From: Antechinus flavipes
Lineage: Eukaryota
Direction of reading: 5' to 3'
DNA length: 64,000 nucleotides
NCBI RefSeq assembly: GCF_016432865.1
Contig: NC_067400.1
Coordinates: 635,066,001-635,130,000, forward strand
A program made the position numbers and the translations under genes. Positions 3,560 to 63,689 of this stretch are shown one piece after another. Below the pieces are notes generated by a model that was not told where the DNA came from, ran no database searches, and saw nothing but the letters and a program-made list of their open reading frames with translations. Each line of letters starts with the position of its first letter. Within the stretch, counting starts at the first letter, position 1.

Positions 3560-4010
3560 TACAATGGAGGGGTCTGGGAGAGGTCTCTTGAAGAAGATGA
3601 GATCTGAAGCAAGTCTTGAAGGAAAAAAGAAATCCAAGAGTTGGAAGAAAAGAGATAAAGCATTCCAGACATAGAGGATAGCCAGGGCAAAGGTATGAAG
3701 GTGAAAGGTGGAGAGTCATATTAGGACAGCAAGAAGGTGCACCTACAGAGAGAAAGAACATGTGTGAAAACTGAAAAGGTTGGAAGGAAGCTTTAAATTC
3801 TAAGCAGGAGAGGTAGCCCTCTGAACTCGGTGGGCAAGAAGTAGACATGATAAGATCACTCATGGCTTGATGAAAAATGGACTGAAGCAGGGAGAAAATC
3901 GAGGTAGGGTGGGGGCCAATAGCTCTTTCAATAAGCTAGGTGTCAGGTGATCATAGCAAGCACCAGAATAGGGTCTGTGTCAGAGGAGAAAAGGGGAAGC
4001 ACTGAAGAGA
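3560..4010 (-). mobile_element. L2 fragment
   Basis: Purine-rich L2-antisense text ending in gtcagaggagaaaagggg, which leads into the 27-bp array. Confidence 0.65.
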
Positions 4011-4305
4011 TGCTGCAAAGGTGACATAGACCAGAAGCTGCAGAGGTGAAATGGACCAGAGGTGCTGCAGAGGTGAAATGGACCAGAGATGCTGCATAGA
4101 TGAAATGGACCAGAGGTGCTGCAGAGGTGAAATGGACCAGAGATGCTGCATAGATGAAATGGACCAGAGATGCTGCATAGATGAAATGGACCAGAGATGC
4201 TGCATAGATGAAATGGACCAGAGATGCTGCAGAGATGACATGGACCAGAGATAGAGCAGAAGTGAAATGGACCAGAGATGCTGCACAGATGAAATGGACC
4301 AGAGC
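4008..4305. repeat. 27-bp tandem array (gaaatggaccagagatgctgcagaggt), L2-derived, about 11 units
   Basis: Direct reading; explains the MDQRCC and GPFHLCSIS repeat ORFs. Confidence 0.9.
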
Positions 4306-5397: not shown

Positions 5398-6066
5398 NNN
5401 NNNNNNNNNNNNNNNNNNNNNNNNNNNNNNNNNNNNNNNNNNNNNNNNNNNNNNNNNNNNNNNNNNNNNNNNNNNNNNNNNNNNNNNNNNNNNNNNNNNN
5501 NNNNNNNNNNNNNNNNNNNNNNNNNNNNNNNNNNNNNNNNNNNNNNNNNNNNNNNNNNNNNNNNNNNNNNNNNNNNNNNNNNNAGGAAATGAAAGGAAAG
5601 GGAAAGGGAAGAAAAGGAAAGGGAAAGGAAAGGAGAGGGAGAGGGAAGGGGAAAGGAAAGGGAAAGGAGAGGGAGAGGGAAAGGAGAGGGAGAGGAGAAG
5701 GGGGAGGGGGAGGGAGAGGGAAAGGAAAGGAGAAAGGGAAAGGAAAGGGGAGAGGAAAGGGGAAAGGGAAAGGGAAGGAAAGGAGAGGGAAGGGGAAAGG
5801 GAAGGGGAAAGGAAGGGGAAAGGGNNNNNNNNNNNNNNNNNNNNNNNNNNNNNNNNNNNNNNNNNNNNNNNNNNNNNNNNNNNNNNNNNNNNNNNNNNNN
5901 NNNNNNNNNNNNNNNNNNNNNNNNNNNNNNNNNNNNNNNNNNNNNNNNNNNNNNNNNNNNNNNNNNGGAAAGGAAAAGAGGGGAAAGGAAAGGAGGGGAA
6001 AGGAAAGGAGGGGAAAGGGGAAAGGAAAGGAGGGGAAAGGGGAAAGGAAAGGAGGGGAAAGGAAAG
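5398..6066. repeat. (GGAAA/GGGAA)n purine tract with assembly gaps at 5398-5583 and 5825-5966
   Basis: Direct reading. Confidence 0.95.
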
Positions 6067-18099: not shown

Positions 18100-20430
18100 A
18101 GGGCAATAAGAATCCATTGAAAGTTACTGAAGGATTTTTGGATTTTGTCCTTCATTCTCAAAGAAAATCATGATATCGGGGAAGTGATGTCATGACATGC
18201 ACGTGAACTGGATCTAGGTGAGGGAGAACTGGGCAAGGTCACTGGCCTCATTTTCCCCCTCAGAGATGTGGATCCAGTAGGCACAAAGATGGTAATTATG
18301 GTCACACTTTTACTTTAAGAAAATCCCTCTGGTCACTTAATGGAGGATGGACTAAAATGAGGAGAGACTAGAGGCAAGAAGACCCCCCAGCAGCCAGCTA
18401 CTATAGCAGCTCATGTGATATTGAAGTGATGAGGGTCTGCACCAGAATGGGGCAATGTCAGAGGGGAAGAGGGGGATGTATTGGAGAAATGGTATGGAGA
18501 CAAAATTGACTAGAGATGCTGCAGAACTGAAATGGACCAGAGAAGCTGCAGAGGTGAAATGGACCAGAGATGGAGCAGAACTGAAATGGATCAGAGAAGC
18601 TGCAGAGGTGAAATGGACTAGAGATGATGCAGAACTGAAATGGATCAGAGGTGAAACAGAGATGACATGTACCAGAGATGGAGCAGAGGTGACATGTACC
18701 AGAGATGGAGCAGAGGTGACATGGACCAGAGACACTGCAGATGTGAAATAGACCAGAGATGGTGCAGAAGTGAAATGGACAGGCCTTGGCACCATGTTGG
18801 ATATGGACAGTGAGAGAGTAAAGAGTGCAACGTGATCCTGAAAGACTGGAAGAATGAAGGTGCCTGCTATAATAATTTAGCAGACAGATGGCAGGGATTG
18901 GGGAAGAAATAATGGGTTCTAATTTGGACGTTGAGTTTAAGATGTCTGTCTACTGGACATCCAGTTCAAAATGTCTTTAAGATAGTAAGAGATCAGCAGA
19001 GAGGTTGAGGCAGGAGAGGTTGTTTTATGTATGCATGTTGTTATGATGTATCATAAGCATAGCAGTAGTAATTTAATTCATGAGAGCCAACAAAGTCACC
19101 AAGTGAAATAGGATGGAAAAAGAAGAGAAGAGCACCCAGGACAGAGCCCTGAGGGAATGGACAGGGTCTGGAGGAGGTCCCAGCAAAGGAGACATGGAAG
19201 GAATAAGTAGTCAGAGAAAGAGACAACCAGAAAAGAGTGGATGTCCCTGAAAATCTAGAGGAAAGAGAGGACTCAGGATAAAAAAGTGACCAACAGTGTT
19301 TAATGACACAGAGCTGTCCAAGAGAATGAGTCACTGGATCTGGTCACTAAGAGCCTGCCAGTCACTTTGGAGGGGGCAGTTTGGGTGGAATGATAATGTC
19401 AAAGGTCAAACCATCACGGGTTTGGAAGACAGAGAGAGGAGAGATGCTATCATAAATGGTGAATTTGAGTTTAGCCACAAAGGGCAGAGGAGATCTAGAA
19501 TGACAGTTAGCCGGGTAGATAGGTCAAGTGAGGATTGGGGGAGACTGGTTAGGTTTATAGGTTTGAAGGAGCAAGGAACCAGAGAGAGACTAATGATCTA
19601 GTGGAGTAGGTAAGATGGGGAGAATCCCTGGAGCAGGTGGAGGGTCAACCTTGGTCAGGAGTCAGACCACCTCAGCATGGAAGATGGGGGAAGAAAGGAA
19701 GGAGGGGTAGGGGTTTCTGAGGGAGGGGAGGGGAGAAGAGGAAGTTCATGGCAAATGGTCTCAGGTTTTTTCTACAAAACAGAAAGGGTTTCAGCAGAGA
19801 GAGGGGGAGGGGAGTAAGCTGATGAGGGAGCTACAGTAGGACAGCCTGGTAGCATCAAGGGCCCAGTGGAGTGTGTCCCGTAAACCTGTAGTGGGCCCTG
19901 TCAGGACGTGATTTTCTCTACCTTTATTTACCATCATGTATATGGGCGTGAAGGTCAGATGGTGAGAGTGATCCAAGACTGGAGCTTTTGGGGGGGGGAG
20001 AAGCGCACATTTGGGCTCATGGTAGAGATTAAGGGACTCAGGAGAGGAGCACAAAGGTTGAGCTGGGTCGCCAATGGGGAGAAGTAGAGGGAGTGGCTAG
20101 AGCAGGGGAGAGAGCCTGAGAGAGGGCTGAGGGGTCAAGGGAGAGTAGGGTCATGTAAGGGGAGCCAGAAGGATAGGGGAGAGGACAGTAGCTTTCTTTA
20201 GATAAGGGGTTTCAGAGTTCTAGACCATGGAACTAAGCAGCCTGTCGGTGCGACGTTTGTGGGTGACAGCAGGATCCCAGGTGTGGCCGAGGTGAGTGGA
20301 GGTGAGCAGGTAGAGAAATAGAGAGGCTTGGTCTCTGAAGGAGTCAGTGTGTACGTGGAGTCCCCTGGCATGAGAGTAGCCTCCAAGGAGCAGAGGAAGG
20401 CTGTGAGCCAGGTGCTAATTCATTCATTCA
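18100..20430 (-). mobile_element. Long degenerate L2 element (endonuclease to RT C-terminus)
   Basis: Minus remnant ATLMPGDSTYTL resembles the L2 endonuclease ILGDFNIH motif; gacaggccttggcaccatgttggatatgg is L2-antisense text. Confidence 0.7.
18500..18780. repeat. 27-bp L2-derived tandem array, about 10 units
   Basis: Same unit as 4008-4305, embedded in continuous L2 sequence on both sides. Confidence 0.9.
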
Positions 20431-21199: not shown

Positions 21200-21840
21200 G
21201 CAACTGGTGACATCACCAGGCCCCGCCCCCATCGGGCTGTACCCAAGAGCCCCAACATATGATGTCACTCGTCCCAGTTCCTCCTCTGCCTGAAGCGACA
21301 GTAACAAGTGACGTCATTATCTCCGCTCCTCCCCCTTGCCTCCGCCTGGGTCCAGAGACCCCGGTAACAGGTGATGTCATCAGGTTCGCCCCTCCTTTGT
21401 GTCCCGGACCAGCCTTGTGACGTCACTACTCCCCGTCTCTTCCCTGCCTCCGGCCCGGCAGAAGGACCGACGGCAGTTAGGACTGCGGAACGTACCGCCC
21501 GCGAGGGCGCCTTCCCCGGGGCGAGGGAAAACAGAAGCCAACCGAAGCCTGAGGAGGGTTGAAGGGTGGACGGCCCTGCGCGCGCATTCCCAGTCTCGGA
21601 TGACACAATGCGCATGCGTTTCGGCAACCCTGCACTACACTTCCCAAAATCCTCCAAGAGCCCGCCTTCCCTCCTTTTGGGCGGCCCCTGCATGCTGCGC
21701 ATGTTCCTGGCTGAGGGCGGGACGTACGCACCAATCAGAAAGGACTGGTACAGGCTAATTTCCATAGGGGAAGGAGAACGTTCTGTCTCCATGACAACTG
21801 CAGAAGCGACTCCTCTCAGGCTGGCAGCCCCGAGCGATAG
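21200..21840. promoter_or_regulatory. CpG-island promoter, cassette copy B
   Basis: Five CRE or CRE-like octamers at 21208-21425; NRF1 tgcgcatgcg at 21609; ZNF143/SBS-like actacacttcccaaaatcc at 21634; GC box; CCAAT at 21731; RFX-like gtctccatgacaac at 21785. Confidence 0.75.
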
Positions 21841-22149
21841 CACACAGCTGAGGTGACACCCGAGGGCCAGTTACTGCCCAAAGAGGAGCACGTGGATAAA
21901 GGCCGGAAGATGGACCCTCAAATCGGGCAAACAAATACAGCTTCCGGGATCTGTCCATCTGGGGTCCAGAAGCCGAGGTCCACCCAGACCGGGCGCCCCG
22001 CCCCCGATCCATCCTGGGCTGAAGGTTAAAGGTTGGAGGCTGGAGGGAAGAAGAGAGAATGGGGAAACACGGCCCTGACTCGAAAGGACATTGTTCGGAA
22101 GCTGTTACAGTCAGTTTTGGGGAGCAGGGCATGAATCCTCGCCGTCCGC

Positions 22150-23554: not shown

Positions 23555-23716
23555 GGGCGGCCCCTGCATGCTGCGCACGTTCCTGGCTGAGGGCGGGACG
23601 TACGCACCAATCAGAAAGGACTGGTACAGGCTAATTTCCATAGGGGAGGGAGAACGTTCTGTCTCCATGACAACTGCAGAAGGAGTCGCTTCTCAGGCTG
23701 CCAGCCCCCAGCGATA
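23555..23716. promoter_or_regulatory. Promoter cassette copy C, near-identical to 21679-21839
   Basis: 128 bp with 2 mismatches to 21679-21806, then continued similarity. Confidence 0.85.
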
Positions 23717-23899
23717 TCCCCCAGGTCCCTCCCTCCAGGGGTCCTGGCTCCTGAGAAGTCCTTGTCTGCCCCTGCCCTCCAGGCCCCTTCACTGTCTAGT
23801 CTCCACCACAGCCACCTCGGCCCCGCTCCCCTCCAGGCATTGGGCTTAGTTCCACCCCTTCAGCCCCACCGGACAGGTGACATTTTCCGAGTCTTTCAG

Positions 23900-30779: not shown

Positions 30780-31420
30780 AAACAATCATTAGTCAAAACA
30801 TTAAACATTATGTGCCAATCACTGTGCTAAATGCTGGGGATACAAAAAAGGGGCAAAAGTTTGTCCCTGCCATCTGGGAGTCCAAAGTCTGAAGGAGAAG
30901 GGCCTGCAAATAGTTACAACCAAGTGATTTACAGAATAATAGGAAGTCATTAACACAAGAAAAGCCCTGGAAGACTTTCTGTAAAAACTGGGAGTTTAAT
31001 TGGGACTTGGAAGTCAGGGAGATCAGTTGAGTGGAGGAGAGAAAGCATTCCAGGCATAGGGCACTGAATGGAGAACACAGCCTGGAGGCTGTCATGCTTA
31101 AAAAGTATAGTCTGACAGTGAGGTGTAAAATTCTCCTGGATCGTTAAGAGCTTTTAATGCCAAACAGAGCATTACCTATTTACTCCTAGAAACTATAGGG
31201 ATCCACTTGTTTGTTGAGTGAGGGTGGAGAATGACGTCAGATCTGTGCTTTAGGAAAATCACTTTAGTGGCAGAATGAGGAATGGTCTGGAGAGAGACCC
31301 ATTCCCCAAGACCATCCCCTATTGCCATCCACTAGCATCACATTACATAGCTGTGAGTGATAAGATCCTGCAGCAAGAAAGTGACAGTGTCAGAGGAGAG
31401 AAGGGGATAAAAAAATTGCT
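30780..31420 (-). mobile_element. L2 3' portion
   Basis: tgtgccaatcactgtgctaaatgctggggatacaaa is the antisense L2 3' end; continues to gtcagaggagagaagggg. Confidence 0.7.
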
Positions 31421-32475
31421 GCAGAGGTGACATGGACAAGAGAAGGTACAGAGATGAAATGGAGCAGAGATACTGCAGAAGTGACATGGACTAGAGATTG
31501 TGAGGTGGTGAAATGGACCAGAGATGTTGCAGAGGTGACATGAACCAGAGACGCTGCACAAGTGAAATGGACCAGAGAAGCTACAGATGTGACATGGACC
31601 AGAGATGCTACAGAGGTGAAACAGACCAGAGAGGAAGCATAGGTGATATGGATTGGAGATGGTGCAGAGGTGAAATAGGCCACAGATGCTGAAGTGACAT
31701 GGACCAGAGATGGTACAAAGGTGACATGGCCCAGAGATGCTGCAGAGTTAAAAGGAACCAGATTTAGTGCAGAGTTGAAAGGGACCAGAGAAGCTGCAGA
31801 GGTGAAATGGATCAGAAATGGTGCAGGAGTGACATGGACCAGAGATTGTGTGGAGGTGAAATGGACTAGAGATGCTGCAGAAGTGAAATCAACCAGAGAA
31901 ACTGCAGAGGTGAAATGGATCAGTGATAGTGCAGAGGTGAAATGGACTAGAGATGCTGCAGAGGTGAAATGGACCAGAGATGGTGCAATGTGACGAATGC
32001 GCTAGCACCCAGGACACCCCAGAATCAGCCAGAGTCAGAATAAGCAAAAGTCCCTAGTCTTTATTCTTGGTCTTTAGACACAGGATTGAACAGGAAAGAA
32101 GTGGAATCTCCGCGACTGCCTTCTCCCTCATATACTGCCAAAGTATGACTGGCCAGTCTTACTCCACCCCCTAGTCCCTCCTACAATCCTCTGTATACAC
32201 CAATCATTGAGCCAGCACAGGATAGTGGGAAGGACCATTTTCCAAGCATATGCCCATAAAGTATTGTCCAATCAGTGCCCATAAAGTGTTGTCCAATCAG
32301 TAGTTAGCCTCAAGTGCTCAGCAGTCCTGACCTCAGTGCATCAACTCAATAGTTTCAGCCCTCTATAGTGCTGAGGTGAAATGGACCAGAAATGGTACAA
32401 AGGTGACATGGCCCAGAGATGCTGCAGAGTTTAAGCGACCAGAGAAGCTGCAGAGGTGAAATGGATCAGAGATGC
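31420..32475. repeat. 27-bp L2-derived array (31420-31988 and 32368-32475) split by an LTR
   Basis: Same unit as at 4.0 kb and 18.5 kb; resumes directly after the LTR. Confidence 0.9.
31989..32367 (-). mobile_element. Solo LTR, same family as 60486-60854
   Basis: Shares gacctcagtgcatcaactca, tagcctcaagtg and aatcagcc(a/g)gagtcag with the 60.5-kb element; minus-strand AATAAAGAC. Confidence 0.85.
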
Positions 32476-34059
32476 TGCAGAAGTGAAATCAACCGACCTT
32501 GACAGCTTATTGAATCTGGGGAATGAGAGTAATGAGATGTAGCTCCGATGGAGGACATAGCAATACCTGCTACCGTACCTTGAGAGTGCCACAAACAATG
32601 CTGACTGTCAGATAACAATCTGTTGGTCAGTGATAATCAAAATTTCTGAGAATTCAATAGTGGGGTGCAACACTTCTAAGCCCTAGAATTCTATATTTTT
32701 CAAGACCACTCTATACAAGATAACTATAAATATGTATAGGTATATTGGATTTAACATATTTTAACATTTTTAACATGTAATAGACTACCTGTCATCTAGT
32801 GGAGGGGGTGGGAGGAAGGAGGAGATAAGTAAGGGACCCTTTGCAAGGGTTAGTGTTGAAAAATAACTTATGCATATGTTTTCTAAATAAAAACCTTTAA
32901 AAAAATTACTAGTTGCTAGTACTAAATATAAAAATAATTGATCCTAGCTACCTGGTATACAATTTATTGTCAATAACCACTGCCACAGGTCATCTAGGAA
33001 GCTTGCCATGTTTCTCAAGTGGACATTTAATGCCTTTTTAAGGGCAACTAATAAAATCTAATCCATTTATTAAAAAAAAAAAAAAAAAAAAAAACACTCT
33101 GCAATTTTACCTCTAAGCTATAAAATTAGCCTATCAGTAACTTGAAGAATTAAAGTCCAATGCCCCTATGAGACACTAAAGCCCAATGATGGGGGAGAAC
33201 TGACCAAGTTACCAAGGTGATCTCCATCTGGGGTCACAAGGGAAACAGCTGGGGAAGGCAACTCCACCCATCAGTGACCTAAGCAGAAAAGCTGAGGTTG
33301 GGGAACCCTACAGGCAGAGACTGGCCTGTCCCGGAGGCCAGGGAGGGAGCCATTGGTGTACCCTTCTCTTTCTTTCTGCCTGTAGCCTGGGCAAGTTCCT
33401 CTTGTGCCACATTGAACCCCTGCTATCAGCTTGAAAGGGAGGAGGGGAAACAACACTGCCACCCACCTCCTTGCTAGGAGCCCCAACAGGTAAGCTTGAC
33501 TGCCTCTCCCTGGGCCTCCCCACACAAACACCTCCTTGCCATCTCCTCCACAAGGTGCTTTAGAAAGGGGGGGTCTCCCAGGGAGAGGGATTCCAGCAGG
33601 ACTGGAAGGATCTGAAGGGGAGAGGTGCCACACGAGGGCAGGGCTAGGAGCATGGGGAGGGGGAGTCTGGAGGGCAGTCACCACTGAATGCTAGCCCACT
33701 GGGTGAAGGGCCAGCCCCTTCTTCGGAAGGGAACCCTCTCTGCAAGGGAACCCTTCTCTGCCCTCCCCTCTTTCCAGGACAGCAAGTCATGAACTCCATC
33801 ATGGCCCATGGAGTCACCAGGACATGACCAGGCTGGCCCTGGGCAGAGGAGCCCAGCTAAGGGCATCGGAGGTCTCAGCCAGGAGCATCTAGTAGGAAAG
33901 ACCCTCCCCCCAAGGACCTGAGGATGGGCTAAGTGGGGGCCAGGGACTGCCCCATAACCTGGGCAGCAAGAGGGAGGACTCCAGCAGGTTTGTAGGCAGA
34001 AAAAAGGAAGCTGGAAGAGAGGGAGGGATTGGGAAGGGCGGGACGGGGGTCCCTCCAGG

Positions 34060-34990
34060 AGCCAAGGCTTCTTCCCGTGTGAACCCTCAGGTGCTGGCTC
34101 AGGTCCGAGCTCCCCTTGAAATGCCTTCTCGCACTCACCACACCCCTCGGGCCTCTCCCCGCGCCCGTGGCGTCTCTCCCCGCGCCCCCATCGGGCCTGT
34201 CCCCGCGCCCCTCCGGCCTCTCCCCGCGCCCCCATCGGACCTCTCCCCGCGCCCCTCCGGCCTCTCCCCGCGCCCCGTCGGGCTTGTCCCCGGGGCCGAG
34301 CTCCACACGAAGCTGCTTCTGTCTCTCGCCACGGTGACTCTTCTGGTGCTCGCGAAGGTCCGAGCTGCCCCCAAGGCTCTCCCACACTGGCGGCGTCGGG
34401 GCGGATGCTCGGTGCGCGGAGGGTGGCGCTGGGGGAGCCTCGCGGCACGTGTAGGGCTTGGTCCCTGGGGGACTCCTCCGGTGCTCCTGGAGGTTGGAGC
34501 CGCTCGGGAAGCCCTTTCTCACATTCGCCGACTGTAGGTCTTAGTGCTGGGCCGCTTCCTCAGCGGCCCCAGGCCCTCCTTCCCCAGGGCACCGCTCTCC
34601 TGACCCGTGGTGTTCCTCCTGGTACAGCCCCTGCCCTGGGCACTCGGCTCGGGATTCCGGCTCTCTCCGGCAGCGCCTGCGGGGACCCCTCCTCTTGCCA
34701 GCGGCTCTCCCGTGTTCCGGGGCTGGAGTCTCCCCGGAAGGCGCTCGCACTCCCGGCCCTTTCTCCTTTCCTCGCTGGACGGCTAGCGCCGCGCCGCCCT
34801 CTGGGGCGCCCTGGGGGATGGAGGGTCTGTGGGGCTCCCCGCGGGGCCCTGCCTTTGGCCGGCCTTCCCCGCTGCGGTCCTCGGGGAGCCCGGCAGAACG
34901 GCCTCCGGTCTCTCTTTGCCCTTCCCCTCCCCCGCTCTTCTGCTCTCGGTGGTGAAACGGGGGCTTTCTCAGAGCCACAGAGAAGATCAA
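34060..34990 (-). pseudogene. Decayed paralog of the 39-kb ZNF terminal exon
   Basis: Remnants GSNLQEHRRS, GGSSDLREHQKSH and [15 protein letters not shown] with frameshifts and an internal repeat expansion. Confidence 0.85.
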
Positions 34991-38921: not shown

Positions 38922-39881
38922 CTATTCTCTAGTGTGAAGTTTGTGATGCTGGATCAGGTCCGAGCTATAGCGAAAGGCTTTCCCACACTGGTGACAGCCA
39001 TAGGGCTTCTCCCCGGTGTGAACCCTCCGGTGCTGAGTCAGGTGCGATCTCTGCACGAAGGCTTTGCCGCAGGCGCTGCACTGGAAGGGCTTCTCCCCGG
39101 TGTGAGTCCTCTGGTGCTCGATGAGGTAGGAGCTCACGCTGAAGGCTTTGCCGCAGACGCCGCACTGGTAGAGCTTCTCGCCGGTGTGAGTCCTCCGGTG
39201 CTGAGTGAGGTGGGAGCTCTGGACGAACGCCTTCCCGCACTGGGGACACTGGTAGGGCTTCTCGCCGCTGTGACTCCTCCGGTGTGTGACGAGGGCCGTC
39301 TTCCACATGAAGGCTCTCCCGCACTCGGGGCACGCGTAGGGCTTCTCCCCGGTGTGGACCCTGCGGTGCTGGCTCAGGTCCGAGCTGCCCTTGAAGGCCT
39401 TCCCGCACTCGGGGCACTCGTAGGGCTTCTCCCCGGTGTGGACCTTGTGGTGCTCGATGAGGGACGAGCTGCGGCCGAAGGCGCGGCCGCAGCGGCCGCA
39501 CGGGTAGGGCCTCTCCCCGCTGTGGCTCCTCTGGTGCTTGCGGAGGTCCGAGCTCCACCGGAAGGCCTTCCCGCACTCGGGACACGCGTAGGGCTTCTCT
39601 CCCGTGTGCACCCTCCGGTGCAGGCTCAGAGCTGAGTTTTGCAGGAAGGTTTTCCCGCATTCGCCACACTCGTGGGGCTTGTCTCGGGCTGCCGCGGGGG
39701 GACTCCGCCCAGTCCCCGGGGCACCCCGTTCCAGAGAGCGACCTTCCTCCCCCTGGGGGCTTTTCCGGGGCCACGCCACAGCCTCGGGGGGCGCCCCTTC
39801 CCCGCGCTTCCCCAGCGGGTCCCCTCCACGAGCTTCAGCAAACCCGGGGCCCAGGGGCCAGCTCCCCTCTAGTGTCTCCAT
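38922..39881 (-). CDS. C2H2 zinc-finger protein, 9 intact tandem fingers (319-aa ORF in a terminal exon starting at 39939)
   Basis: Nine CxxC...HxxxH fingers with TGEKP-type linkers and no stops; ctctttcag acceptor at 39940; ATG in GTAATGG context. Confidence 0.93.
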
Positions 39882-40539
39882 TACTGCCCCGGGTCTTCTC
39901 GTAGAGCAGGTGCCTGAGTCTCAGTCCCAGCCTCCCCGTCTGAAAGAGATCGAAAATGGACATGTCACCGTGGTGGGCGCCGGGGAGGGAGGGACGGCGA
40001 CCCCAGGAAGCTCGAGGGTTTGGGGCGCGGCTGGAAGGGGGAGCTGGGCGGGGCCTGGCCGACCGGAGGCGGAGGGGCCCTGCCCAAGGAGGGAGAGGGG
40101 GCTGAAGGAGCGGTGGGCTGCTGGGGGAAGGTGCGCTTCTCTCCCTAAGGATTAGGCGTCCTGTCCGTGGGCGGCCCGGCGACCACGGAGGTCTCCAAAC
40201 AGAAGAGGAAGCCCCGTGCCAGCCACTCTGGCCCACCTGGCTACCCATGGAATGGGGGCGTTCCGCTATGCCCATTTCCCAGATGAGGCAATTGACTGCC
40301 AGGGAGCTCAAGGGCTCAAGGCTAGCGGGCGGCCAAGTCGGGTTTGGCAGTCTCTTCGGCCATCTCCTTCACAGATGGAAGGAGCAGGAAAGATTGTGGA
40401 TGAAAGCCTATGGGGAAGGTTTTCCCAAGGGCCCTGTGGAAGGGGTGGGGGAACGAGGCAAAGGGAGATGGAGAAAGGTCGGCATGAAAGCAACAATGGA
40501 GAGCATAGAACAGGGGAGTTTTTTAATCACCAGTGAATG

Positions 40540-43365: not shown

Positions 43366-44387
<1,022 letters not shown>

Positions 44388-50918: not shown

Positions 50919-51284
50919 TCACTCACTGTGGGGGCTCGGGGGGCCGAGGGGGACCATGTGGTGCTCCCAGTGCTCCAGGGAGTATCTGCACACTTTGCAC
51001 GCGGGCTCCCGGTCCTGGCAGCAGAAGAGCGAGAAGGGCTCCATGTGCAGGGGGCAGTGGTCCCGGGGAAGCTCGCTGGGCTGCTGGGGCTGCAGGCGCA
51101 GCAGCAGGGACCGCACTCTGTCCAGGCGCAGGCTGGTCCGCAGCTCCCCGGGGGCCTCCCCGGGGAAGCAGGCCCGGCACCAGGTGCGGCCGCAGGGGCT
51201 CGTGACCGGGTCCTGGAACAAGTTCCTGCAGACCGGACACAAGAGCTCCTTCTCCAAGGCCCGGATCACCAGGTCAGTGTCCAT
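50919..51284 (-). CDS. Truncated TRIM-like protein: degenerate RING plus B-box2 (121 aa); may be a pseudogene
   Basis: tttcccacag acceptor (exon starts 51288), ACCATGG Kozak; ELLCPVC...PCGRTWCRAC and CPLH...FCCQDREPACKVCRYSLEHWEHHMVPL. Confidence 0.75.
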   Translation of the reverse strand: MDTDLVIRALEKELLCPVCRNLFQDPVTSPCGRTWCRACFPGEAPGELRTSLRLDRVRSLLLRLQPQQPSELPRDHCPLHMEPFSLFCCQDREPACKVCRYSLEHWEHHMVPLGPPSPHSE

Positions 51285-51924
51285 GGTCCTGTGGGAAATG
51301 AGGAGACTGGGTAGGGCTTGTCGGCCCGCCTGGCCCGCCACACTGGCGAACGGGGCCCCGGAGGGGAGGGGGAAGGGGAGTTCTGGGAGAGGAGCCGGCC
51401 GGCTCGGACCAGACCGGCTGAGGTCAGAGCAAGGAGCCCCAGTTAGGGCACTGGGGCAGACCCAAGACAGCCAGACTCCAGCCCTCCCCGGGGCAAGGGG
51501 ACACACACCACTGGTAGGAAGTCCTCCCTAAGTGGCCACTTTGCAACTCGCCTCCAGGGCACTGGCTCAGCCCCCCACAGATAACTCTCTCCCGGGAAGA
51601 GGGTCCCCAGCCACGACCGACCTGTCGCTGACTTGACTACTCCCCTCTCCACAACTCTAACCCTAACCCTGACACCTTTGCACGGCTCACTCGAATCCAA
51701 TTCACGTGAAACAGGAAGAGTGGTTAGAAGGCGCTAAGTGCGAGTGGGGAGCTATGGGAATACAGGTGAGGTGCTGTTGTGAAGGTAGAAGGAAGGGCCC
51801 AACTTGGCAGTAGAATAGAAGGGAAGAGTCAAGGACACTGGTGTTATTCCACGTTTGAGCCCAGGGATGGATGGGCAGAAGGAACGAGGGTTAGACAGAA
51901 AGATGGAAGGAAGGGCCCAATTGC

Positions 51925-57182: not shown

Positions 57183-57353
57183 CTGAGGCTCTGCAGCCGA
57201 CAGCCTGGCTGCAGCAGGCCCCGGCCCAGCAGCTTGGCGCCTTCCTCTCCCACGTGGCTGTCACTGAGGTCCAGCTGCCTCAGGCTGGGGCAGCTGCTCA
57301 GCACCAAGGCCAGCGTCTCACAGCCCAAACTGGTGAGCCCGCACATCTGGACC
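57183..57353 (-). CDS. RI-like LRR exon (NLRP/RNH1-type gene)
   Basis: 171 bp, phase 2-2, ag/gt; VQMCGLTSLGCETLALVLSSCPSLRQLDLSDSHVGEEGAKLLGRGLLQPGCRLQSL. Confidence 0.92.
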
Positions 57354-57754: not shown

Positions 57755-60700
57755 TAATAGTGAATGTAAATGGGCTGAACTCTCCCATAAGGTGGAAGCA
57801 GATCGCAGAATGAATTTAAAAAGAGAATCCTATAAAATGTTTATAACAGTCAGAGTAAAGGTAAAAGGCTGCTCCAGCTGAAATGAAAAAGAAGGGTAGC
57901 AAACCTGATCTTAGACAAGAAAAACAGATCTAATTAAAAGAGATAAGGAAGGAAGCTACAGCTTTCTAAAAGTTCCATTGACAATGCAGCGATATCACTA
58001 CTAAACCTATGCACCAAGTGGTATAGCATCCAAATTCTTAGGGGAAAAGTTAAGTCAGTTCCAGGAAGAAATAGACAGCAAAACTATACAAATACCTAGC
58101 ATTCCCCTCCTTCTCAGAACTAGATAAATCTAACCACAAAATAAACAAGAAAGAAGTTAAGGAAGTTAATGGGATTTTAGAAAAGTTAGATATGATTAAT
58201 AGACCTCAGGAGAAAACTGAATGGGGATAGAAAGGAAAGTAGCTTTTTTTCCAGCAGTGCATGGCATCTACACAAAAACTGACAGAAAAATCTCACAACT
58301 AAATGCAGAAAGGCAGAAATGTCAAATGCATCCTTTTCAGAACATGATGCATAAAAAACAAAATGACATGCAGTAAAGGGCCATGAAAAGATAGACTTAA
58401 AAATTAATTGGACATTAAACAATCTAATCCTAAAGAATTCCAAACAAACGATCAATAAAACAATCAAAACAAAAAACAGTTTCATACAAGAGAAAGCCAA
58501 TACTGAGACAAATGTACCAAAATTTATGGGATGCAGCCAAAGCAACTGTTAGGAGAAATTTTATATCTCTAAATGTTTACATGAGTAAAACAGAGAAAGA
58601 GGAGCTCAATGAATTGGGCCTGCAATTTAAAAAGCTAGAAAAAGAACAAATTAAGAATTCCCAATTAAATACCAAATTAGAAAATCTAAAACTAAAAGGA
58701 GAAATCAATAAAATTAAAAGTAAGTAAACTACTGAACTAATGAATAAAACTAAGAACTGGTTTAATAAGGGGGAAAAAAAGAATAAAATAGAGAAAACTT
58801 TAAAAAATGAAATATCAAATTACCAGTATCAAAAATGAAAAAGGTGAATTGATCACAATAAAGAGTAAATTAAAATAATAACTGGGAGCTATTTTGCCCA
58901 ACTGTGTGCCAATAAATCTGACAATCTAAGTGAAATGGGTGAATATTTACAAAAATATAAATTGCCAGATTAAAGAAATAAAATACTTAAATAACCCCAT
59001 TTTAGACAAAGAAATTAAGCAAGCCACCGATGAACAACCTAAGAAAGAACCTTCAGGACCAGATAGATTCTATCCAAACATTTAAAGAACAATAAATTCC
59101 AATATTATATAAACTATTTGAAAAAGAATGAGCAACGGTGTTCCACCACAAATGGTGCCGATATCTGTATCAGGAAAAGCCAAAACAGAGAAAGAAAATT
59201 ACAGACCAAATTCCTTAATGAATATTGATGCAAAAAAAAATTTTTAAGATATTAACAAAGACATTATAGCAAATTATCATCGGGATAATACACTAGGACC
59301 ATGTGGGATTTATAATAGGAATGCAGGGTCACTTCAATATTAAGAAAACTATCAGCATAATGGACCATATCTATAGCAAAACCAACAGAAATCATGTGAC
59401 TAATATAATATATACAGAAAAAGCCTTTGACAAAATATAGCACCCATTCCTATTAAAAATACTAAAGATCACAGAAATAAATAGAATTTTCCTTAAAATG
59501 AGAGGTAGTATCTATCTAAAAAAATCAGCAAGCATTATATGTAATGGGAATAAGCTAGAAGACTTCCAAATAAGATCAGGGATGAAACAAGGATGCCTAT
59601 TATCACCACTACTATTCAATATTGTATTAGAAATTTTAGCTTTAAGAATAAGAAAGAAAAAGAAATTAAGTAATTAGAATAGACAATGAAAAAATAAAAC
59701 TATTATTCTTTGCAAATTATATGATGGTATACTTAGAGAATCGACTAAAAATTACTTGAAATAATTAACCATTTTAGCAAAATTGCAGAATATAAAATAA
59801 ATCCACATAAATCATCAACATTTCTGATTACAAACAAAACCCAACAACAGGAAATAGAAAATTTTCATTTAAAATAACTATAGACAATATAAAATATTTG
59901 AGAGTCTGTTTGCTAAGACAAACCTGAAATCTATGAAGACACAAAGCACTTTTCACACAAATAAGTCAGATCTAAATAATTGGAAAAATATTGATTGCTA
60001 ATGGATAGACTGAGATAATATAAGAAAAATGATAATTCTACCTAAATTAATTTATTCAGTTCCATACTAATCAAACTGCCAAAAAATATTTTATAAAGCT
60101 AGAAAAAAACAATAACAAAATTCATCTGGAAAAATAAAAGCTCAAGAAAAAATACAAAGGAAGGGGGCCTAGCCATACCAAATCTAAAATCATATTATAA
60201 AATGAAAAGTGATAATCACCAAAACTATTTGGTACTGGCCAAGAAATAGTGATGGATTACCAGAATGGGATAGGTACACAAGACACAATAATCAATTACT
60301 ATAGTGATCTAGTGTTTGATAAACCCAAAGACTCCACTTTCTGGAATAAAAACTCACTGTTTGATAAAAACTGCTGAGTAAACTGAATAGCATGACAGAA
60401 ATTGGGCATAGACCAATGACTTATATTGTATACCAAGATAAGGTCAAAAAGAGTCCATTATTTATATATAAAGAGTGACACAATATGTAATGGGCTGAGG
60501 CTTGAGTTGATGCACTGAGGTCCCAAGCACGTGAGGCTAAATAGTAATTGGACCATACTCTATTAATATATATGCTTGGAGAAAGAATGGCCCCCGCCCA
60601 CTCTTTAATGTGATGACCCCGTATTTAAAATCAGCCGGAGTCAGGAATTCAGGTTAAGGGAAAAATCTTCAATCTTTATTCTCAGTAGAGATGAAGAAGG

Positions 60701-62060
60701 ATTGAGATAGCAATATGGGCAGACAGGAAGCCAGCTAGCAGAGGGGGATTGGAGGTGAAGGGCGGTCATGATATTAATAGAGTATGGTCCAATTACTATT
60801 TAGCCTCAAGTGTTTGGGACCTCAGTGCATCAACTCAAGCCCCAGCCCATTACAACAATAAGCAAATTAGGAGAATAAAGAATAATTTACCTGTCAGATC
60901 TATGGAGAAGGAAAGAATTTATAACCAAACAAATTCAGAGAACATTACGAAATGCAAAATAGATCATTTTGATTACATTAAATTAAAAAGATTTTGCACA
61001 AACGGAGCCAATGCAGCCAAGACTAGAAGGGAAGCAGAAAGCTGGAGAACAATTTTTGCAGCCAACATTTCTGATAAAGGTTTCATTTCTCAAATATATA
61101 GAGAAGAGAGTCAAATTTATAAGAATTCGAATCATTCCTCAGTTCATAAATGGTATATTTATGGATATGAAGTAGTTTGCAGATGAAGAATTAAAGCTAT
61201 CACCTCACATCTCACACCTATCAGTCAGCTAATATGATAGGAAAGGAAAATGATAAATGCTGGAGGGGACATGGGAAAATTGGAATAATAATACCTTGTT
61301 GGTAGAATTGCGAATTGATCCTACCATTCTGAAGAGCAATTTGGAACTATACCCAGAAGGCTGTAAAACTGTGGATCCAACAGTGTTTCCACTGGGTCTC
61401 TATCCCAAAGAGATCATCAAAAAAGGAAAAAGGACTGCCGTGCAAAAATGTCTCTAGCAGCTCTTTTTGTAGCGGCAAAGAAATGGAAACTGAGGGGACG
61501 CCCATCAGTTGGAGGATGGCTGAACAAGTTACAGTACATGAAGGTTATGGAACATTATTGTTCTACAAGAAGCGAGCAGCAGGATGATTTCAGAGAGGCC
61601 GGAGAGACCTACAGGACTTGATGCTGAGGGAAGAGAGAACCAGGAGGACACTGAATGCAGCAACATCAACATCGTGCAATGACCATCTCTGACAGATTGA
61701 GCTCCTCTCAGCAATACAGTGATTCAAGACAATTCCAAAGGACTCATGGTGGCAAATACAAGCCACACCCAGAGAAAGCCCTCTGGAGTCTGATCACAGA
61801 CTGAATGGGGTCTGATCACAGGCTGAACAGGCTCTCTTTGTTGGGGGGGAGGTGTTCTTGTGCTTTTCCCCTTTGCTGATTCTTTGTTCAAACATGTTTA
61901 CATATGAGTCTACAAGTGAAAATGTTTAAATGCGCTTCTACATGTATAACCTGTGTCAGATCGCTCGCTGCCTAGGGAGGAAGGAGAGAGAAAAAATGGA
62001 AATTGAAATCTTAGAAAAGTGAATGGTGAAAACTATTGACACAGCAATGGAAAAAAATAA
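57755..62060 (+). mobile_element. Degenerate L1 ORF2 plus 3' UTR in the LRR-gene intron
   Basis: Starts with endonuclease motif NVNGLNSPI; RT-region remnants (QGCLLSPLLFNIVLE-like); many stops. Confidence 0.92.
60486..60854. mobile_element. Fold-back LTR-derived element with 84-bp terminal inverted repeats and 6-bp TSD
   Basis: 60486-60569 is the reverse complement of 60771-60854 (81/84 identical); TSD acaata at 60480-60485 and 60855-60860; L1 is continuous across the site. Confidence 0.92.
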
Positions 62061-63518: not shown

Positions 63519-63689
63519 TTCAGCTCCTGCACCTTACAGTTGGGGTGCCTCAGGCCCCGAGCCAGCTCCTGAATCCCCACGTCTTCCAGGTCATTGCCAC
63601 TGAGGAGCAGGGACTCGATGGCGTTGGAGGCGCTTAGGACGGAGGAGATGCTGGCACAGCAGGCGTGGGTAAGGCGGCAGTTGGCCAGG
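63519..63689 (-). CDS. RI-like LRR exon (NLRP/RNH1-type gene)
   Basis: 171 bp, phase 2-2; LANCRLTHACCASISSVLSASNAIESLLLSGNDLEDVGIQELARGLRHPNCKVQEL. Confidence 0.95.

Follow-up and report, generated by a model that had tools for sequence, protein, structure and literature searches.

This analysis concerns a 64,000-nt stretch of the Antechinus flavipes genome (assembly GCF_016432865.1, contig NC_067400.1, positions 635,066,001 to 635,130,000), hereafter the window, and a short insert within it that derives from the long terminal repeat (LTR) of an endogenous retrovirus (ERV) and carries an inverted copy of one LTR end. Published work is cited by PMC identifier, for those passages of each paper that bear on the point. 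The host site lies in an intron of ~6.2 kb between two minus-strand exons which encode leucine-rich repeats (LRRs) of the ribonuclease inhibitor (RI)/NLRP type. The downstream exon (57183..57353, 171 nt) is recognized by Pfam LRR_6, by matches to ribonuclease inhibitor and NLRP proteins and by its splice context. The upstream exon (63519..63689, 3′ limit approximate) is proposed from a weak LRR_6 match (E 0.039, below the cut-off) and an acceptor context. Between them, antisense to the gene, stands a decayed marsupial-type L1 element (57900..61780, plus strand; limits approximate, the left one set by eye). It was identified by matches to the protein of its second open reading frame (ORF2p; E 1e-7 and 8e-13), and its 3′ part matches other L1 pieces of the window. 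A short frame of the right flank (34 amino acids) matched only designed TIM barrels, and the longer frame gave the ORF2p match.

The insert interrupts the ORF2 remnant of this L1. It spans 369 bp (60486-60854), begins with TG and ends with CA (sequence and repeat scan), and is flanked by exact copies of ACAATA at 60480..60485 and 60855..60860, the target-site duplication (TSD), whose left copy completes ORF2 codons 973-974. When duplications of k = 2 to 11 were tried, the match was exact only at k = 6; two random 6-mers drawn from the L1 flanks are equal with a probability of 8.5e-4. In the left flank, ORF2p residues 912-974 can be aligned as far as the final TSD base. In the right flank, residue 996 falls at nt 60923, against the 60924 expected if the empty site held a single ACAATA. 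The flanks are thus colinear to within 1 nt and essentially no L1 sequence was lost at the empty site.

The insert termini form an inverted repeat of 84 nt (60486-60569 and 60771-60854; 96% complementary). Identity extends to 81 of the 84 positions, and the mismatches at arm positions 13, 42 and 46 amount to 3.6% (95% confidence interval 0.7-10.1%). No other inverted repeat of at least 40 nt with arms less than 3 kb apart is found in the window. A first, sequence-only reading of this DNA had described the 369-bp insert, its TG...CA ends, the 84-bp inverted repeats with three mismatches and the acaata duplication, and recomputation agrees on all of these. Fold-back chimeras may arise during library preparation or assembly, and this assembly is gapped, with two runs of N in the window. 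Such an artefact is nevertheless very unlikely here: the arms differ at three sites, the L1 at both outer joints is unique and colinear and bears an exact TSD, and the left arm carries 37 LTR bases that the right copy lacks, so that the insert is not a fold-back of this molecule. The gaps themselves (5398-5583 and 5825-5966) fall in purine-rich repeats, and the assembly is scaffolded.

Two LTRs served as references. The first is the 469-nt LTR of the dasyurid class II ERV MEBrv3, whose record in the supplement of PMC11334065 shows its own 6-bp TSD and an AATAAA whose first base lies 71 nt ahead of the final one. The second is a full-length solo LTR of 379 nt on the minus strand of the window (31989..32367), which lies outside the element, was recovered by BLAST and alignment, and is used as an outgroup. 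Against these, the larger part of the insert is an internally shortened solo LTR of 246 nt on the minus strand (60609..60854, read from 60854 to 60609). Its 3′ part matches the related LTR better than any of 500 shuffles (0/500 as good). By eye, its AATAAA (60680-60675) stands 71 nt from the end, a distance equal to that in MEBrv3, which indicates that this copy ends at the true U5 terminus; its other end is a true U3 terminus. It is shorter than the MEBrv3 LTR by 223 nt and than the related LTR by 133 nt. The deletion responsible begins after nt 84 (break 60771/60770, junction 60764..60783, minus strand). Where it ends on the far side is uncertain, as the LTR looks internally repeated in its 3′ region, and the TAT microhomology there is putative. 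The description of a complete minus-strand LTR, shortened internally but with AATAAA and its own end, is therefore borne out.

The smaller part (60486..60606, plus strand) is LTR nt 1-121, the start of U3, inverted relative to the main LTR. Beyond its match to the right arm, it aligns without gaps to the MEBrv3 LTR with 105 of 121 nt identical, counted by eye on the record in the supplement of PMC11334065, and its nt 85-121 can be aligned with the 31989-32367 LTR as well. Between the two parts stand two extra bases, AA (60607..60608, plus strand), which are absent at that point from both MEBrv3 and the related LTR. The plus-strand fragment had first been drawn as 60486-60608, with 39 LTR bases beyond the reach of the right arm; 37 of these are indeed LTR nt 85-121, and the last two, the AA, occur in neither relative. 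While an ordinary solo LTR is one colinear U3-R-U5 unit between TSDs, this one also holds an inverted stretch of U3 (nt 1-121) and is internally deleted.

The LTR shows the features of class II ERVs: family similarity, TG...CA termini, AATAAA near the 3′ end and a 6-bp TSD. The attribution of 6-bp TSDs to class II or betaretrovirus-like elements is in line with the MEBrv3 record. Sequence comparison supports an LTR related to MEBrv3 and belonging to another subfamily (13% diverged); as the locus contains no internal ERV sequence, 'MEBrv3-related' is the supported claim, and not membership of the MEBrv3 clade. MEBrv3 (dvERV6989) is an env-less class II ERV which amplified intracellularly and constitutes the majority ERV of dasyurid genomes; its LTRs are identical in quoll, dunnart and antechinus and degraded in the devil (PMC11334065). 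The LTR at 31989-32367, taken at first for a normal member of the same family, is ~75% identical over 69-81 nt in an insert-specific BLAST and is better called a relative from another subfamily. It sits in a 27-bp tandem array, has a 25-nt internal tandem duplication and a decayed 6-bp TSD (4/6 alike), and its U3 end reads TA in place of TG. An ERV1 solo-LTR family whose TSDs have 4 nt (PMC4408412) is a different one.

No further relative exists in the window: the complete insert-specific BLAST returned the LTR at 31989-32367 and a single copy of the insert itself. This bears on the proposal that the insert founded, or belongs to, a non-autonomous family that has terminal inverted repeats and is mobilized by an ERV integrase. 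Its shape invites comparison with miniature inverted-repeat transposable elements (MITEs), as it is short and non-coding and has long inverted ends of the integrase type (TG...CA) and a TSD. However, MITE ends are shared with an autonomous DNA transposon, and here both ends are retroviral U3. The insert contains neither a motif resembling a primer-binding site (PBS) nor a purine run of at least 11 nt, so ordinary reverse transcription cannot copy it; its repeats are inverted and not direct, which separates it from TRIMs (miniature retrotransposons with terminal repeats) and other non-autonomous LTR elements. Furthermore, no retroviral integrase is known to excise elements. Translated searches with the antisense frame across the fold-back joint (lengths 36-118) and with the frame across the deletion joint (lengths 89-286) gave no candidate, although they have little power for non-coding DNA. 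A HMMER search of 1.84 billion representatives yielded two matches, with 8 and 6 short repeated stretches, and no convincing relative; a 19-nt LTR motif searched in prokaryotic contigs hit one bacterial locus, matching over 19-24 nt only, which is a chance match. On the evidence of this 64-kb window, we consider mobility very improbable, and the idea of a MITE-like founder is not upheld. A broader conjecture, that a two-U3 mini-element is dispersed after insertion as a unit by the MEBrv3 integrase, or that 'TSD plus inverted end copy plus 2-nt flap' is a recurrent dasyurid class, is also unlikely. If the former were true, an LTR retroelement would have been caught turning into a terminal-inverted-repeat element; if the latter, the class would be a fossil record of template switching in integration gap repair.

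The fold-back joint is informative about the origin of the inverted arm. The inverted U5 terminus starts with TGTG (60609..60612, plus strand), and by eye the same four bases are nt 121-124 of the MEBrv3 LTR. The related LTR also has TGTG at the homologous point, one of two such sites in its 379 nt. The left arm therefore ends where the reference reads TGTG, and by a rough estimate of ours an end would land within one base of a TGTG in ~2% of cases by chance. At the opposite end of the putative copy, the two termini of the LTR are themselves inverted repeats of each other, matching at 6 of the first 7 positions. Both proposed switch points thus show candidate microhomology, interrupted by AA at one of them and inferred there from the relatives. 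The fold-back joint (60600-60618) also resembles the deletion joint (60764-60783) in 17 of 20 columns, a likeness reached in 0/2000 shuffles. Part of it is native U3 repetition, which makes it a hint of structure-guided switching and not a proof. The likeness of the two joints also allows an alternative inner stem and is incompletely explained.

For the AA itself there are two candidates: a retained unprocessed U5 dinucleotide, or a templated insertion. Its length equals that of the unprocessed viral end, but the TC between U5 and PBS in MEBrv3 predicts GA, so that one of the two bases matches. Alternatively, LTR nt 80-82 could have been the template for AA(T). Autointegration, or nested integration, joins CA directly to its LTR target. 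In the present joint the two non-LTR bases intervene and argue against direct autointegration, which had been offered as an origin and is further opposed by the single terminal U3 of one cDNA. The AA may also be a later insertion into a direct CA joint.

The same bases weigh on a scenario with two independent insertions. Here a plus-strand solo LTR would have received a second, oppositely oriented LTR near its nt 121 (or the second would have used the same target site), and a deletion between the similar termini would then have taken away what was left of the first LTR. The three arm differences would suit two separate elements, similar LTR termini could guide the deletion, and inverted tandems and opposite nested insertions of LTR elements are described in Drosophila (PMC5932611). 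Integrase joins CA directly to the target, however, and the joint holds two bases absent from both relatives. Moreover, it contains no target-site remnant, the hallmark of double insertion in the passages of PMC5932611, and the scenario requires an exact deletion while leaving the TGTG match unexplained. We regard it as improbable.

At a rough probability of 55%, we favor the reading that a normal insertion with one U3 and one U5 end was followed by a template switch that copied the U3 end, and then by a deletion. An MEBrv3-related class II ERV would have integrated on the minus strand with a 6-bp stagger. During repair, the polymerase filling the gap on the U5 side would have switched to the U3 terminus of the element itself through the short terminal inverted repeat. 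An inverted copy of U3 nt 1-121 would have been made before the polymerase returned to the U5 end at TGTG, leaving two extra bases as a retained flap. The provirus would then have been reduced to a solo LTR, and a subsequent deletion would have shortened the long inverted repeat on one arm. The switch could also have occurred later, at a break or stalled fork in the solo LTR, either as a template switch of type 1-4-3-2 or 3-1-2-4 or as a break-induced fold-back captured by end joining. The probability given covers both timings, and within it we give gap repair more weight than the later event. The end product would most likely be an inert, non-mobile relic and the insert probably a single repair accident.

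Several observations favor copying. Since the LTR termini form a short inverted repeat, a copy made after normal U3 and U5 strand transfer gives the same TSD and the same TG...CA ends as any two-U3 insertion. The puzzle of two U3 ends within one TSD would then dissolve, because the left end would be copied and not integrated. The exact 6-bp TSD, of the length seen in the MEBrv3 record, and the lack of L1 loss are in keeping with this. At the three mismatched arm positions both outgroups carry A13, G42 and T46, so that the left arm has changed once and the right arm twice, as expected of arms that were once identical. With copying, one event would suffice to explain the TSD, the precision of the two termini, the microhomology and the extra 2 nt. 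We infer the switch, its timing, the origin of the AA and the order of events from what is established, namely the anatomy, the TSD, the L1 colinearity, the family relation and the microhomologies.

The required steps have precedents. [quoted passage not shown] Integrase keeps the two viral ends near each other, and short homology lets host polymerases extend a viral end with a copy of either viral strand (PMC5041404). Two-switch event types which create inverted repeats account for 31% and 23% of 794 human-chimpanzee events (PMC5453318). Fold-back insertions in yeast can exceed 150 bp, and 0-5 bp of microhomology accompany their capture (PMC11724301).

Other points weigh against copying. None of the sequences compared includes an ancestral or orthologous allele. 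One-ended events usually give long duplications and not a short TSD (PMC5041404). A copy of 121 nt would be extreme among ape template switches, whose lengths have a median of 12 and a maximum of 128 (PMC7954356), and two replication jumps within repeats of 3-4 nt have been doubted (PMC8755829). The AA interrupts the microhomology, and the flap that MEBrv3 predicts is GA. The three arm differences, with their wide interval, also fit two source molecules. TGTG in this subfamily is deduced from two relatives, and the reference shares only 87% identity. Lastly, searches of the open full-text literature found no comparable gap-repair product.

An origin from two U3 ends joined by integrase is possible but doubtful. 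The substrate would be either a cDNA which folded back at its U5 end during reverse transcription and copied U3 to run-off, or two cDNAs held in one intasome and then joined end to end. All three special points of the insert would then be natural cDNA termini, with no coincidence required; the exact TSD and TG...CA ends would follow directly, without a return through an inverted repeat, and the two extra nucleotides correspond exactly in length to an unprocessed end. Minus-strand strong-stop DNA is documented to prime itself in vitro (PMC6088434), the env-less MEBrv3 amplifies within cells (PMC11334065), and differing donors would account for the arm differences. However, one cDNA has a single plus-sense U3 terminus, and a second duplex U3 end would need an extra strand or molecule. 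Self-primed products are called dead ends in the human immunodeficiency virus (HIV) work and were undetected in endogenous reactions (PMC6088434), aberrant forms number 0/99 and 0/85 among unperturbed HIV proviruses (PMC5041404), and the joint has AA where MEBrv3 predicts GA. In literature searches, judged by titles and abstract openings, no U3/U3 provirus formed in vivo was found. Asymmetric LTRs and two proviruses with inversions are reported in PMC9278108, where U3/U3 ends are not described for proviruses in the passages concerned; the terms 'invert' and 'inversion' do not occur in PMC12657518. The notion of an aberrant inverted intermediate survives best as an inverted structure formed with template switching and, with less probability, as two-U3 integration, which copying would mimic. 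On balance, the sequence-only reading over-read the insert, both as integrase acting on two U3 ends and as a MITE founder.

Two further origins were rejected: L1 twin priming, because the LTR termini are exact and poly(A) is absent, and an inversion between two distant LTRs, because the TSD copies match and the L1 is colinear. A third, one-ended integration followed by host rescue, gives viral-viral joints, but the short TSD is typically lost in such events (PMC5041404).

In the sense of the host gene, RNA of the insert is predicted to fold at -191.7 kcal/mol (z -19.9; 0/100 shuffles as low), and the DNA strand behaves similarly, which agrees with the hairpin potential first proposed for the LRR pre-mRNA. 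On this predicted fold, the 84-bp stem in an LRR-gene intron could yield double-stranded RNA or be edited. Rfam gave no match at gathering score in 59500-62000. The LTR polyadenylation signal (60675..60680, minus strand) has the same orientation as the host gene and, by its sequence and position, could act as an intronic, early polyadenylation signal.

Elsewhere in the window, a frame at 50922-51347 (minus strand) encodes RING and B-box domains. The only longer relative found is 52% identical, and its precomputed Pfam accessions are presumably FISNA, NACHT and LRR, a hint that the cluster encodes immune receptors of RING-B-box-NACHT-LRR type. One 27-bp minisatellite forms at least three separate arrays (4006-4304, 18503-18780 and 31417-32489), suggesting local duplication or a dispersed repeat. 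On the minus strand, a C2H2 zinc-finger frame of about 8 fingers (38922-39920) is accompanied by two decayed remnants (33929-34540 and 43620-44264). Among the matches listed there is also a GC-rich direct repeat of 170 nt (21679-21847 and 23555-23724), 93% identical and 1.9 kb apart.

As a single locus, the insert is a curiosity with one lesson: a perfect TSD and two U3-type ends are no proof of integrase acting on two U3 ends, since the terminal inverted repeat of an LTR allows a copying error to mimic this outcome. Should such structures recur among dasyurid solo LTRs, their joints would be a natural read-out of how the germ line repairs integration intermediates; in the devil alone solo LTRs are estimated at ~64,500 (PMC11334065). 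An endogenous LTR with two U3 ends in one TSD was not found reported in the open full-text literature, as judged by titles and abstract openings; subscription journals, most supplements and repeat databases were outside this scope. Its components are already known: the ERV solo LTR, the template-switch inverted duplication and the aberrant provirus joint.

The insert can be compared with several known systems. It resembles MEBrv3 solo LTRs in the ungapped U3 match (105/121) and the AATAAA-to-end distance, both by eye, and in its TG...CA ends and 6-bp TSD, and differs in its LTR length (246 against 469 nt) and in the inverted 121-nt U3 copy beyond the U5 end. MITEs share the small non-coding body, the TSD and the inverted ends, but the insert has no known cognate transposase. 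TRIMs likewise are small and non-coding, with LTR-derived ends and a TSD; they have direct LTRs with a PBS and a polypurine tract, both of which the insert lacks. Inversion circles formed by autointegration of murine leukemia virus (MLV) also join an LTR end, inverted, to an LTR, through direct CA-target joints and with no net duplication of U3, whereas the insert has two extra bases and a duplicated U3 terminus. Aberrant proviruses of HIV and avian sarcoma/leukosis virus (ASLV) join a viral end to viral sequence in either orientation via short homology; in these the short TSD is usually missing and the end is often cut short (PMC5041404), while the insert has an intact U5 end, a copy ending exactly at U3 nt 1 and an exact TSD. 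Lastly, template switches of types 1-4-3-2 and 3-1-2-4 and fold-back insertions produce an inverted arm with microhomology joints (PMC5453318, PMC7954356, PMC11724301). Template-switch mutations are usually far shorter than the copy in the insert, and the ape surveys filtered out repeat-masked sequence, so that LTR cases fall outside them (PMC5453318, PMC7954356).

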